Source of the DNA: an uncultured delta proteobacterium
Lineage (GTDB): Bacteria > Myxococcota_A > Polyangia > Polyangiales > Polyangiaceae
Assembly: GCA_963782055.1 (NCBI GenBank)
Contig: CAWAIF010000003.1
Coordinates: 1,920,001 to 1,984,000 of the forward strand
Length of the DNA: 64,000 bases
Direction of reading: 5' to 3'
The notes under the pieces were generated by a model, which saw only the letters and a program-made list of their open reading frames with translations, was not told the DNA's origin and searched no databases. The translations under genes and the position numbers were made by a program. Below are positions 7,959 through 25,986 of this stretch, piece by piece; the stretch's first letter is position 1; each line of letters begins with the position of its first letter.

Positions 7959-9074
7959 TCAGGCGCCGGTGGCGAACCCGTAGATCTCCGGCTGGATCAC
8001 CGCCGGCAGGTCCCCGCGCCGCACCAGGATGCTCCGCACCGCCCACACGTCGCGGAAGATGCGGTAGCGCAGCGCCGTCTGGTCCAGGTAGTCCACGCCG
8101 GACGACCCGCCGGTGCCCGTGCGCCGCCCGATGATGCGCTCCACCATCCGCGCGTGGCGCTGCCGGAACAGCACGAACGCCTGCTCCAGCGCGACGAGGC
8201 CGTCCACCACCTCGCGCGGCCACGCGAGCAGCGGCAGCTCGCGGTAGCTCTCGATGAACACCAGCGCCGCCCGGATGCGCGAGACACGCGCCCGCTCCTC
8301 CGCGGGGCAGTCCTCCGCGAGGAGCAGCGCCCGCGCGCCGGCCATCTCCTTCGCGTAGCGCTCCTCCAGCCGCTTCTCGTCGGCCGGCGTCAGCGCGTCC
8401 GTCCGCGCCAGGTCCATCGCCGCGCGCGTGACCCTCGCGTGCGCCTCGCAGTACGCCTCGATGAACGCGCGCACCCGCGCGGCGTCTCCCGGCTGGTCCG
8501 GGAAGGACCCCTGGATGGGGGTGCGATGCAACCACTCCCGCGTGGCCTCGCGCAGGGTGGGCTTGTCGGCGAGCCGCGCCTCCACCCGCCGCGTCGCCAG
8601 CGAGGGCGACCCGTCGGGGTTGCGCAGGGCCGCGAGGTAGCTCCCCTCGTGGCCGAGCGGCACCCGCTCCGACTCCTCCAGGCCGAACAGGATCTCAATC
8701 TCGCGCATCTGCGCCGACTGGAAGCCGCTCGCCGGCGAGAGCTTGTCGCGGAAGTCCAGGTAGTCGCGCGTGGTCATCGTCTCCATCAGGGAGAAGTGGT
8801 GCGCGACCTGCTGCAGCAGCGTCTGGATGCGGTGCAGGCCGCGCACCGCGGAGGCGAGCGCCTGCTCCGGCACGTGCGGCTGCGCGAACAGGTCCCGCAC
8901 GCTCCCGAGCTCGCGCAGGATGAGCTTGAACCAGAGCTCGTCGATCTGGTGGATGGTGATGAACATCACCTCGTCGTTGGACAGCGCGTCGTCGCTCGCC
9001 TCCAGGCCCCCCTGGAGCGAGATGAGCTGCTCGACCTTGATGTAGTCCCAGTACGCCGTGGGCTTGCGCGCCAT
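7959..9074 (-). CDS. kynA: Tryptophan 2,3-dioxygenase
   Basis: YWDYIKVEQLISLQ, DEVMFITIHQIDELWFK, FRDKLSPASGFQS, VERIIGRRTGTGGSSGVDYL. Confidence 0.93.
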   Translation of the reverse strand: MARKPTAYWDYIKVEQLISLQGGLEASDDALSNDEVMFITIHQIDELWFKLILRELGSVRDLFAQPHVPEQALASAVRGLHRIQTLLQQVAHHFSLMETMTTRDYLDFRDKLSPASGFQSAQMREIEILFGLEESERVPLGHEGSYLAALRNPDGSPSLATRRVEARLADKPTLREATREWLHRTPIQGSFPDQPGDAARVRAFIEAYCEAHARVTRAAMDLARTDALTPADEKRLEERYAKEMAGARALLLAEDCPAEERARVSRIRAALVFIESYRELPLLAWPREVVDGLVALEQAFVLFRQRHARMVERIIGRRTGTGGSSGVDYLDQTALRYRIFRDVWAVRSILVRRGDLPAVIQPEIYGFATGA

Positions 9075-9076
9075 GG

Positions 9077-23343: not shown

Positions 23344-23451
23344 GGGGCGAGGACTTTACTGCGAAAACCGCCAGGCTGTATGCTCCCCCGCCTTGCCCGC
23401 CGTCCCGCCCCCTCGAGCCCGCCGTCCTGCCTGCCCCGCGAGGGAGCCACG

Positions 23452-25986
23452 ATGATCACCCCCGGGCAGCGCGGACCCGGCGAGGGGACGCGGGCGTTCG
23501 TCACCTTCGTGGTGCGCTGGGGGAAGGTGATCTGGGCGCTCGCCCTGATCCTGGCCATCCCCGCCACCTGGCGCACCGTCGAGCTGTACGCCAACCTCAA
23601 GAGCGACCTGGAGGAGCTGCTGCCGCGCGACTCGCCCAGCGTGCTCGCCCTGGACGAGATGCGCGCCCGCAACCCGGGCCTGCAGTACCTGGGCGTGGTC
23701 GTCGACACCGGGACGCCGGACAACCTCGCCGCGGGCGACAAGTTCCTGGACGACCTGGCCGCGCGCATCCGCACCTACCCGCCGGACATGGTGCGCGAGG
23801 TGCGCGTGGGCACGTCGGTGGAGCACGCCTTCATCGACGAGCACGCGCCGCTGTACGTCGACCTTCCCGACCTGAAGATCATCCGCAAGCGCATCGAGGC
23901 GCGCCGCGACTACGAGGTGTCCAACGCGACCGGGGTGTCGCTCGACGACGACGAGCCGCCGCCGAGCATCGACATGTCGGACATCGAGAAGAAGTACGAC
24001 GCGCGCATCGCCCGGCGAGGGCAGGGGGCCGAGGGGGACCGCTTCGCCAGCAAGGACAAGCACCTGACGATGCTCTTCGTCGAGGCGGGCGGCTTCTCCT
24101 CCGGCGCGGACAAGGCGCGTGCCCTGCTCGACCGCGTCAAGGGAGACGTCAACGCCCTCGGGGGCCCCGCCCACTACGCGCCCGGAATGCGCGTCGGCTA
24201 CGCGTCGGACGTCGCCATCTCGGTGGAGGAGCTGGAGGCGCTTCAGGCGGACCTCTCGCTCTCGTCCATCCTCGTCGTCTTCGCGGTGATGGCGGTGATC
24301 GTCATCTACTACCGGTGGTGGAAGGCCATCCCGGTGCTCATCCCGCCGCTCTTGCTCGCGGCGGTCTACGCCTTCGGGCTCGCCTCGCTGCCACCCTTCG
24401 GGGTCACCGAGCTCAACTCCAACACGGCGTTCCTGGGGTCGATCATCGTCGGCAACGGGATCAATTTCGGGCTCATCCTGCTCGCGCGCTACAAGGAAGA
24501 GCGGCGCAAGGGCAAGAGCGTGGACGAGGCGCTGGTCTGGGGCGTCTGGGGCGCGCGCGCGGGCACCCTGGCGGCGGCGCTGGCGGCGGGCGCGTCGTAC
24601 GCCTCGCTCATCATCACCGAGTTCCGCGGCTTCCGGCAGTTCGGCTTCATCGGCGGCCTCGGGATGGTCACCGCGTGGATGACGGCGTTCGTCCTGGTGC
24701 CCCCGCTGCTCAAGTGGATGGACAAGGAGCCGGACGCCGTCGTCGAGACGGGCCCCGACTCCACCCGCTCCGGCGGCAAGCGGCGCTTCAGCGTGATGCG
24801 CTACTTCGTGCACCTGGTGGAGAGCGCGCCGGGCGTGATCGTCGCGGTGACCATCGTGCTGACCGCGCTGTCGGCCTACAAGGTGTCGCGCTTCGACTCG
24901 TCGTACCTGGAGTACGACTTCAACAAGCTGCGCCGCTACGACACCTGGACCAACGGCGAGGGCTACTGGGGCCGCAAGATGGACAACTTGCTCGGCCACT
25001 ACCTCACGCCCACCATCCTGATGTTCGACACCCCCGAGCAGGCGACGGCCGCGGAGAAGCGCATCCGCGACTCCTTCCAGAAGGGGCGGCTCGGCCACTT
25101 CGTCGCCTCGGTCCGGGCGATGGACGATGTGCTGCCGCAGGACCAGGACGCCAAGATCAAGGAGGTGCGCGCCATCCGCGACGCGCTGACGCCGCGTGTG
25201 CGCGCGGCCATCCCCGACGACAAGCGCGCCCGGCTGGACGAGCTGCTGGGCGACGCGCACCTGACCAAGGTCGGGGTGGGGGACCTGCCCTCCACCTTCC
25301 TCACCGGCCTGCGCGAGCGCGACGGCACGGTGGGCCGGCAGGTGCTCGTCTACCCGCGGCCGAGCGAGGAGCTCTGGCACGCCGACGCCATGCACGAGTT
25401 CGTCGGCCTGCTGCGCGATCTCGCCAAGCAGGATGGCGGCAAGGCGGGGCGCGTGGCGGGATCCATCCCGCTGACCTCGGACATCGTGAAGTCCATCGCG
25501 CGCGACGCGCCGATCGCCAGCTTCGCCTCCTTCGCGGGGGTGGTGCTGGTGGTGCTGCTGGTGCTGCGCGCCAACAAGGCCTCGGCGTACGTCATCGGCT
25601 CGCTGGTGGTGGGCGTGCTGTGGATGGCGGCGGCGACGATGGCGCTCGGAGTGCGCGTCAACTTCGCCAACTTCATCGCCTTCCCCATCACCTTCGGGAT
25701 CGGCGTGGACTACGCCGTGAACGTGATGGCGCGCTATGTCCAGGACGGCGGGGGCGACGTGCGCGGCGCGATCCGCTCGACGGGCGGCGCGGTGGCGCTG
25801 TGCTCCACGACCACGATCATCGGCTACTCGTCGCTGCTGCTCGCGAAGACCAGGGCGCTGTTCTACTTCGGACTCGTCGCGGTGATGGGGGAGCTGGCGT
25901 GCATCACGACCGCGGTGATCGCGCTGCCGGCGCTGCTGCTGCTCGTGTCCAGGCTGAGGGGGCAGAAGGCGCAGCCGGAGGCGTGA
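23452..25986 (+). CDS. MMPL/RND-family lipid exporter
   Basis: Two TM repeats with large periplasmic loops; IIVGNGINFG and ITFGIGVDYA motifs. Confidence 0.88.
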   Translation: MITPGQRGPGEGTRAFVTFVVRWGKVIWALALILAIPATWRTVELYANLKSDLEELLPRDSPSVLALDEMRARNPGLQYLGVVVDTGTPDNLAAGDKFLDDLAARIRTYPPDMVREVRVGTSVEHAFIDEHAPLYVDLPDLKIIRKRIEARRDYEVSNATGVSLDDDEPPPSIDMSDIEKKYDARIARRGQGAEGDRFASKDKHLTMLFVEAGGFSSGADKARALLDRVKGDVNALGGPAHYAPGMRVGYASDVAISVEELEALQADLSLSSILVVFAVMAVIVIYYRWWKAIPVLIPPLLLAAVYAFGLASLPPFGVTELNSNTAFLGSIIVGNGINFGLILLARYKEERRKGKSVDEALVWGVWGARAGTLAAALAAGASYASLIITEFRGFRQFGFIGGLGMVTAWMTAFVLVPPLLKWMDKEPDAVVETGPDSTRSGGKRRFSVMRYFVHLVESAPGVIVAVTIVLTALSAYKVSRFDSSYLEYDFNKLRRYDTWTNGEGYWGRKMDNLLGHYLTPTILMFDTPEQATAAEKRIRDSFQKGRLGHFVASVRAMDDVLPQDQDAKIKEVRAIRDALTPRVRAAIPDDKRARLDELLGDAHLTKVGVGDLPSTFLTGLRERDGTVGRQVLVYPRPSEELWHADAMHEFVGLLRDLAKQDGGKAGRVAGSIPLTSDIVKSIARDAPIASFASFAGVVLVVLLVLRANKASAYVIGSLVVGVLWMAAATMALGVRVNFANFIAFPITFGIGVDYAVNVMARYVQDGGGDVRGAIRSTGGAVALCSTTTIIGYSSLLLAKTRALFYFGLVAVMGELACITTAVIALPALLLLVSRLRGQKAQPEA

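Follow-up and report, generated by a model that had tools for sequence, protein, structure and literature searches.

An apparently undescribed GH3-centred gene system of Myxococcota as a candidate pathway to an amide-linked aminocyclitol lipid

The window analysed here is a stretch of 64,000 nucleotides from an uncultured member of the Polyangiaceae (phylum Myxococcota; assembly GCA_963782055.1, contig CAWAIF010000003.1, positions 1,920,001 to 1,984,000), and it holds eight genes that form a real, conserved and apparently undescribed system around an acyl-acid amido synthetase of the GH3 family. This system probably makes an amide-linked, phosphate-free aminocyclitol lipid of the cell envelope. 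A sequence-only reading of the same DNA had listed these genes, and its open reading frames, strands, families and four gap lengths were reproduced when checked by open reading frame and Pfam/NCBIfam analyses. The source genome (G000), an assembly of 7.58 Mb that is 97% complete, contains one GH3 of this subfamily and one Ino1. The genes are as follows.

9077-10645, minus strand: aldehyde dehydrogenase (ALDH) with a basic/aromatic C-terminal extension (PF00171, E 1.5e-115)
10759-12669, plus strand: GMC oxidoreductase (PF00732, PF05199; weak PF13618)
12778-14397, plus strand: GH3 acyl-acid amido synthetase (PF03321/23571/23572)
14464-15726, plus strand: Ino1, inositol-3-phosphate synthase (MIPS) (PDB 7NWR, E 4e-89)
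15770-17101, plus strand: DegT-family pyridoxal phosphate-dependent aminotransferase, Fic25-like (PF01041)
17107-18105, plus strand: HpnL/LPG_synthase_TM-like membrane protein, putative flippase (TIGR03476, E 5e-10)
22522-23343, minus strand: inositol monophosphatase (IMPase) (PF00459, E 2.5e-53)
23452-25986, plus strand: MMPL/RND putative lipid exporter (PF03176)

The five genes from GMC to the flippase-like gene are separated by 108, 66, 43 and 5 nt, and the five genes between the flippase-like gene and IMPase are unrelated to the system. A scan for promoters and terminators gave results at chance level.

Conservation of the gene order by far exceeds what chance would produce. We compared 105 loci centred on GH3, of which 25 come from genomes and 80 from metagenomes and 88 remain distinct at 95% identity. 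The gene immediately after GH3 is Ino1 in 84 of the 91 loci that have room for it, and in 70 of 76 after dereplication. DegT occupies its conserved position in 53 of 55 loci and the flippase-like gene does so in 41 of 48, four loci of a cyclase variant described below being excluded from both counts. Of the 27 loci that have at least 8 kb of sequence on both sides of GH3, MMPL is present at 17, IMPase and GMC at 12 each, an Omp85-family gene at 8 and ALDH at 7. The exceptions to the order are a second GH3 copy in genome G003, a scattered system in G010, locus L155, in which the flippase-like gene comes next and the contig ends, and the four cyclase-variant loci. The second copy in G003 (L029:625-3073) belongs to the same subfamily, has a radical SAM/SPASM gene in front of it and is accompanied by neither Ino1 nor DegT. 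Conservation of the GH3, Ino1, DegT and flippase neighbourhood had been proposed as a test of the system, and the order is kept across several Myxococcota families; the inclusion of IMPase, MMPL, GMC and ALDH is likewise borne out by their co-occurrence across the phylum. According to their labels, close homologues come from metagenome-assembled Polyangiaceae, Sandaracinaceae, Kofleriaceae or Myxococcota, and no cultured species name appears among the homologue matches listed.

The orthologue tiers of GMC, ALDH, Ino1 and DegT track the GH3 subfamily over 60 genomes, comprising 23 carriers from three order-level or higher groups (drawn from a 401-genome sample of the phylum and 41 close relatives) and 37 non-carriers chosen for comparison, mostly of the same family and order; a further carrier of the cyclase variant, G544, joined later and raised the carriers to 24. 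The top tier of GMC (at least 585 bits) is present in 23/23 carriers and 0/37 non-carriers, the best of which reaches 488 bits. An ALDH orthologue of at least 55% identity occurs in all 23 carriers (three partial), while the 37 non-carriers all remain at or below 49%. Cluster-type Ino1 is intact in 22 of the 23 carriers and frameshifted in one, and 24 of the 37 non-carriers have ordinary Ino1 alone. DegT was found in 20 carriers, split or frameshifted in four; among the three without a match, one has a frameshifted gene and two have contigs ending at Ino1.

The cyclase variant is informative about the head group. In four loci (L085, L086, L142 and L215 (G544)), Ino1 and DegT are replaced by a cyclase, a LuxS-like protein, two IolG-like proteins, an SDR protein and an aminotransferase. 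The cyclase is a sugar-phosphate cyclase similar to sedoheptulose-7-phosphate cyclases and matches PDB 4P53 ('Cyclase', E 2e-95), which we take to be ValA, the 2-epi-5-epi-valiolone synthase. Both IolG-like dehydrogenases exceed the IolG cut-off (TIGR04380), and the aminotransferase is of the BtrR/StsC type, with L-glutamine:2-deoxy-scyllo-inosose aminotransferases as its nearest relatives (E 7e-111). GH3 and the flippase-like gene are kept in all four loci and MMPL in three. The GH3 proteins of these loci represent two lineages, which are 55-58% identical to each other and 74-77% identical to their Ino1-type neighbours. Neither Ino1 nor a Fic25-like DegT was found in genome G544 (89% complete), which retains the GMC-ALDH pair. 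Ino1 and DegT behave as an exchangeable head-group module, because they are swapped for a cyclitol module while GH3 and the flippase-like gene remain constant; for the same reason, the amine substrate of GH3 is most likely, and most simply, an aminocyclitol. The aminocyclitol proposed from the sequence alone is therefore backed by a natural swap to another aminocyclitol module, and this swap also suggests a ligase that is tolerant for aminocyclitol amides. The LuxS-like protein within the C7-cyclitol module (L142:12883-13374 and L085:12873-13373) is perhaps an isomerase or a dehydratase.

Regarding the ligase itself, GH3 matches were obtained in 47 of the 401 phylum genomes; 14 of them form a top tier (above 510 bits, 48-71% identity besides G000), and the rest score at most 74 bits. 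The subfamily is a single clade against 42 more distant representatives (FastTree support 1.0), and the predicted structure of the window protein (pLDDT 85.6; TM 0.71 to GH3.5) has the GH3 fold. The names of intermediate relatives were uninformative. The nucleotide-binding motifs SSGSSTQGKPK, DSYNATE and GLYAYKLGD lie at residues 129-139, 308-314 and 375-383 and correspond to those given in PMC12493201, and a serine among them aligns with the essential S115 of OlsH, a bacterial GH3 that makes N-acyl-ornithine. The OlsH model matches the window protein at E 2.9e-67 and 227 bits, below its cut-off of 620, which places the protein outside that equivalog. We propose that it is an acyl-acid amido synthetase of a distinct Myxococcota subfamily and forms an amide. 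The view that bacterial GH3 proteins are poorly characterised needs correction in the light of the lipid role of OlsH (PMC12493201). If our proposal is true, the acceptors of GH3 enzymes extend from amino acids to aminocyclitols, and a testable job is assigned to a compact subfamily that was seen here only in metagenome-assembled myxobacteria.

We infer every substrate, the order of the steps and the product. Ino1 would cyclise glucose-6-phosphate, inositol or an inositol phosphate would be oxidised to an inosose, DegT would aminate the inosose and IMPase would take off the phosphate. On the acyl side, GMC would convert the primary alcohol of a lipid to an aldehyde, which ALDH would oxidise to a carboxylic acid. 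GH3 would then adenylate the lipid acid and join it to the inosamine through an amide bond, the HpnL-like protein would flip the resulting lipid and MMPL would export it. As to the alcohol that is oxidised, our tentative first choice is a two-chain lipid with a free CH2OH group (diacylglycerol, alkyl-acyl-glycerol or, at C1, a ceramide); a single-chain or omega-hydroxy alcohol is less likely, and C6 of a glycolipid is improbable. It is conceivable, and we put it forward with some reserve, that these bacteria make a new lipid class, in which the free hydroxymethyl group of a two-chain lipid is converted to a carboxylate and then linked by GH3 to an amino-inositol or, in the variant, to a C7 aminocyclitol. 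If true, such a lipid would take the place of phosphatidylinositol or inositol phosphoceramide (IPC) while containing no phosphate and resisting phospholipases; it would be exported by the same MMPL family, its head group being attached via alcohol oxidation and an amide rather than a phosphodiester or a glycoside. In lineages in which no lipid A genes were found, it would possibly build the outer membrane; lipidomics would gain a defined target.

Several findings weigh against this reading. No dehydrogenase family recurs in the Ino1-type loci, where a NAD-dependent inositol dehydrogenase was not seen, and the single strong Gfo/Idh/MocA match of G000 lies far from the cluster. GMC is without a close solved relative (best PDB match E 4e-23), and the retention of GMC and ALDH in the cyclase variant was seen in one genome (G544) and, as a partial GMC, in L085; it may be the outcome of a swap that happened recently. 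The carrier genomes are kin, so that their counts are not independent, and no statistic is attached to them. On the lipid side, a GNAT protein that we tentatively take to be a bacterial ceramide synthase is present in 20 of 24 carriers, missing in four, and present in 34 of 37 non-carriers. Three carriers of one genus (G089, G129 and G340; 88-94% complete) hold KBL and BioF only and no serine palmitoyltransferase (SPT), and an ElbD-like reductase is absent in the two of them that were tested. IPC-synthase-like genes occur in 5/24 carriers versus 16/37 non-carriers, and replacement is therefore not strict. Since three carriers are without SPT and the two tested are without the ElbD-like reductase, a ceramide or an ether lipid is not an obligatory source of the acid. 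Ceramide as the sole source was thus not supported, given also the four carriers without the ceramide-synthase-like gene, and neither was a strict replacement of IPC. Diacylglycerol is the one two-chain alcohol that all carriers would have.

Three explanations were considered for the missing oxidation of inositol. An unlinked dehydrogenase leads them, short of being probable; capture by DegT of the keto intermediate of MIPS follows closely, and GMC doing both jobs is the least likely of the three. MIPS forms myo-2-inosose-1-phosphate as an enzyme-bound intermediate, and the main variant may draw its inosose straight from this keto intermediate, without a dehydrogenase. Such a capture is speculative.

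The GMC-ALDH pair itself appears to serve the acyl side. In 22 of 24 carriers, the two genes lie less than 10 kb apart, with varying orientation. The pair is separated from GH3 in 10 genomes, where it is found at a distance of at least 40 kb or on a different contig; some of these cases may be assembly breaks. Because the pair stays together, often away from GH3, and persists in G544, its distribution points to a sequential oxidation of an alcohol to an aldehyde and an acid on the acyl side. GMC carries a fused gluconate-2-dehydrogenase-subunit-3-like domain at its N-terminus, and its single-sequence fold model has a pLDDT of 36. The C-terminal tail of ALDH, which contains basic and aromatic residues conserved in 24 aligned rows, looks like a membrane-binding element, and it was not among the top-ranked windows of a hydrophobic-moment scan. 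Since OlsH needs just a free fatty acid, with no GMC or ALDH involved (PMC12493201), the presence of a dedicated pair suggests that the acid used here is out of the ordinary. Acyltransferase families are not among the recurrent neighbours in the clustered loci. A bilayer lipid would thus have to receive its second chain together with the acid, which favours an acid that is already two-chained. In L091 and L094, fatty-acid-hydroxylase genes flank GMC.

An alternative, close to the earlier suggestion that GMC may oxidise the cyclitol, is that GMC is the missing inositol oxidase, that ALDH makes a free fatty acid from a fatty aldehyde and that the product is a simple N-acyl-inosamine. The missing oxidation would then be filled by a gene present in 23/23 carriers, the N-terminal domain of which resembles the small subunits of sugar dehydrogenases (PF13618), and glucose dehydrogenases are found among its weak PDB matches. 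However, GMC stays with ALDH and not with Ino1 in the 10 genomes in which the pair is apart from GH3, and G544, a genome without Ino1 but with its own pair of IolG-like genes, retains it. Oxidation of the cyclitol by GMC is thus disfavoured, and we consider this alternative unlikely, while it survives better than those that follow.

The transport genes bear on whether the product is a lipid. The membrane protein encoded at 17107-18105 has no Pfam match, and two of its orthologues and its atlas neighbours carry LPG_synthase_TM (PF03706; atlas score 0.96-0.98). A flippase-like gene had been described at this position and is indeed there in order; its description is corrected to HpnL-like (TIGR03476), and a role as a flippase is proposed. 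A member of the MMPL family occurs in 54 of the 60 genomes, and the family is therefore not cluster-specific. Close MMPL proteins (at least 640 bits) are encoded in 11 of 37 non-carriers, in each case beside an IPC-synthase-like gene, and a PIP-synthase-like gene usually accompanies these pairs; the one IPC-synthase-like gene that was tested has phosphoinositol dihydroceramide synthase as its best NCBIfam match (E 3.5e-44, below the cut-off). In a midpoint-rooted FastTree of 46 rows, the window MMPL is nested among IPC-synthase-adjacent MMPL proteins (support 0.99 and 0.94 at the enclosing nodes, 0.61 at the inner node), another of which forms a sister pair with a second type of cluster MMPL (support 0.997). 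The MMPL gene of Myxococcus xanthus adjoins spt, and its product was proposed to be a sphingolipid exporter in a preprint (10.64898/2026.04.12.717747). The family is tied here to two inositol-lipid chemistries, which bears on the export of inositol lipids and sphingolipids in myxobacteria. A POTRA-poor Omp85-family gene is present in 30 loci (L092:868-2145 and 29 others), divergent from the cluster or following it, and a tblastn search for it gave no match in G000.

The recurrence of the flippase-like gene, an MMPL related to those of inositol lipids and the Omp85-family gene favours a lipid product, one of the options named in the sequence-only reading, over a soluble acyl-aminocyclitol secondary metabolite such as hygromycin A with a small acid from GMC and ALDH. 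C7 cyclases typically serve secondary metabolites, which speaks for a soluble product, and so does the patchy distribution of the system (14/401 genomes). The proposed hygromycin A route of MIPS, phosphatase, dehydrogenase and aminotransferase (PMC10949010) is a further point in its favour. Nevertheless, no tailoring or resistance family recurs in the loci, and the conserved tail of ALDH, which looks like a membrane-binding one, speaks against a soluble product; we hold this alternative to be distinctly unlikely.

The head-group enzymes were compared with characterised relatives. Cluster Ino1 (64 rows) separates from ordinary Ino1 (17 rows) with an SH-aLRT of 100 in a quick tree, and the two have about 100 invariant positions in common. 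An altered active site was considered and rejected, as those of the 25 clade-specific positions that were compared by eye with an archaeal MIPS alignment match it and give no sign of changed chemistry. The best PDB match of DegT is 8GYH-J (E 6e-80 by single sequence and 2e-114 by profile), 8GYJ being Fic25, and cyclitol aminotransferases rank third in the profile search (E 2e-74). According to PMC11726168, Fic25 aminates carrier-bound 5,7-dihydroxy-6-oxoheptanoate, an acyclic ketone between CHOH and CH2OH. A ketone flanked by two oxygenated carbons resembles that of inosose, and by this analogy a free polyol ketone, whether or not it is a ring, fits better than an NDP-sugar. The earlier assignment of DegT thus stands in that the enzyme is nearer to those acting on free polyol ketones than to those acting on NDP-sugars, whereas an StsC/BtrR type is not supported, the nearest solved relative being Fic25. 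IMPase lies directly upstream of GH3 in L070, L071, L146, L147, L151 and L154.

These comparisons leave a small chance that the main variant forms an amino sugar, either open-chain or cyclic, instead of an inosamine, with DegT aminating the MIPS intermediate 5-keto-glucose-6-phosphate (nojirimycin-type) and GMC and ALDH oxidising that sugar. The acyclic substrate of Fic25 (PMC11726168) and its lead over the cyclitol aminotransferases agree with such a route, which needs no dehydrogenase, and a MIPS homologue that makes a different ring exists (PDB 6K96). However, Ino1 is much nearer to a true inositol-3-phosphate synthase (7NWR, E 4e-89) than to 6K96 (E 1e-12) and has its invariant positions in common with ordinary Ino1, the module that is swapped in makes a cyclitol, and GMC and ALDH persist without Ino1.

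Two other gene sets contain relatives of these enzymes. A second Fic25-like aminotransferase (47% identity) in L174:7285-12040 (G405) stands beside GNAT, haem-oxygenase-like and YcaO-like genes and belongs to a different small pathway. In L156, L157, L159, L162, L163 and L165, ordinary Ino1 is accompanied by a nucleotidyltransferase, a fusion of a nucleotidyltransferase and a class I/II aminotransferase, and a CDP-alcohol phosphotransferase, which makes a third inositol head-group set in the family.

With respect to the lipid context of the proposed aminocyclitol lipid, G000 has two SPT-like genes (below NCBIfam cut-offs) besides KBL and BioF, and a homologue of its GNAT adjoins an SPT-like gene in G010; in G194, it lies at a distance of 4 kb from GH3. 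The five carriers with an IPC-synthase-like gene all keep ordinary Ino1, as does one of the 19 other carriers; the whole PAP2_3 family is too broad to discriminate (52/60 genomes). No CDP-alcohol phosphotransferase or Aur1-like synthase recurs in cluster loci, these queries gave no match in G000, and the three PF01066 genes of this genome are all away from the cluster. Directly beside the cluster of G278 (L203:7645-19905) is a polyketide synthase (KS-AT-ACP-KR-DH) ending in an alpha-oxoamine synthase (SPT-like) domain, with ferritin-like desaturases, a cyclopropane-synthase-type methyltransferase, an ACP, a fatty acyl-AMP ligase and an acyltransferase as companions; it may make a sphingoid-like base. 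In L158:7524-16001 (G336), L180 and L183, Ino1 is combined with Gfo/Idh/MocA, CDP-alcohol phosphotransferase, class III aminotransferase, IPC-synthase-like and MMPL genes, which is likely an amino-inositol phospholipid cluster in related genomes without the GH3 system.

A replacement of lipid A was also considered. The lpxC gene is over the cut-off in 129/401 genomes and in 0/14 cluster genomes of that sample; however, its loss is lineage-wide (e.g., 1/26 in family f32 at E 1e-20), and divergent lpxC- and lpxB-like genes are still present in G000, G005 and G253, so that this candidate is not discriminating. In G000, the lpxC-like gene (C3:586836) is below and lpxB (C3:3657708) at the cut-off, and many related genomes in the order are without an lpxC match. 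A sterol or hopanoid as the source of the acid is very improbable: MMPL matches the HpnN and BstA models below cut-off and the flippase-like protein matches HpnL, but no triterpene cyclase was found in G000 (no oxidosqualene or squalene cyclase match at E 0.001), for which this link was rejected, and the nearest relatives of MMPL are in inositol-lipid clusters.

The system shares parts with several known pathways. In the StsC route to streptidine, MIPS, a phosphatase and an aminotransferase lead to an inosamine, and the aminocyclitol of hygromycin A ends up as an amide. Hyg18, Hyg25, Hyg17 and Hyg8 of the latter likewise provide MIPS, phosphatase and aminotransferase steps to an inosamine (PMC10949010). 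In contrast to both, the main variant is without a Hyg17-type dehydrogenase and has a Fic25-like aminotransferase, a GH3 ligase and lipid transport genes. In the OlsH/OlsI ornithine-lipid pathway of Singulisphaera acidiphila (PMC12493201), a bacterial GH3 with the three motifs similarly acts in the synthesis of a membrane lipid, where it uses ATP to attach a free acid through an N-acyl bond. The window GH3 belongs to a separate clade, its neighbours are predicted to make an aminocyclitol instead of using an amino acid, and GMC/ALDH, the flippase-like gene and MMPL are co-inherited with it; neither an OlsI alpha/beta-hydrolase acyltransferase nor OlsG is among the recurring cluster neighbours. 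By analogy, the cluster appears to work as the OlsH amino-lipid route would if a cyclitol module of the hygromycin type supplied it, and it is a member of neither.

An Ino1-based head group is common to the cluster and the Bacteroides-type phosphoinositol dihydroceramide/phosphatidylinositol pathway (NCBIfam NF052609 and NF052561), and the myxobacterial look-alike of that pathway uses the same MMPL family. Unlike phosphoinositol lipids, the cluster has no CDP-alcohol phosphotransferase or Aur1-like synthase, and its proposed linkage is a phosphate-free amide. Validamycin-type C7N-aminocyclitol pathways start from 2-epi-5-epi-valiolone synthase, and the minor variant shares with them a sedoheptulose-7-phosphate-cyclase-like gene, dehydrogenases and a cyclitol aminotransferase; it differs in being joined to GH3, the flippase-like gene and MMPL and in including a LuxS-like gene. 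Long-chain fatty alcohol oxidase and fatty aldehyde dehydrogenase convert a lipophilic primary alcohol to an acid, and GMC and ALDH would act as such a pair; here, they would be coupled to biosynthesis via GH3. The sequence-only reading knew of no described pathway with this combination, and our literature search, in which subscription papers were poorly covered, likewise turned up no paper that describes this gene set or an aminocyclitol amide made by a GH3.

Outside the system, the region had originally been started at 7959 and thereby took in a tryptophan 2,3-dioxygenase gene (7959-9074), 2 nt behind ALDH; this gene is near the cluster in only 4 clustered loci, its linkage is limited to close relatives, and we place it outside the system. 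Further downstream in the window, a 1671-aa open reading frame (35410-40422) without a Pfam match at E 1e-5 lies upstream of a MoxR-like AAA ATPase gene (34273-35382). At 30372-32432, a single protein combines a SecY-like N-terminal region with a C-terminal region similar to the P1 head of SecDF.

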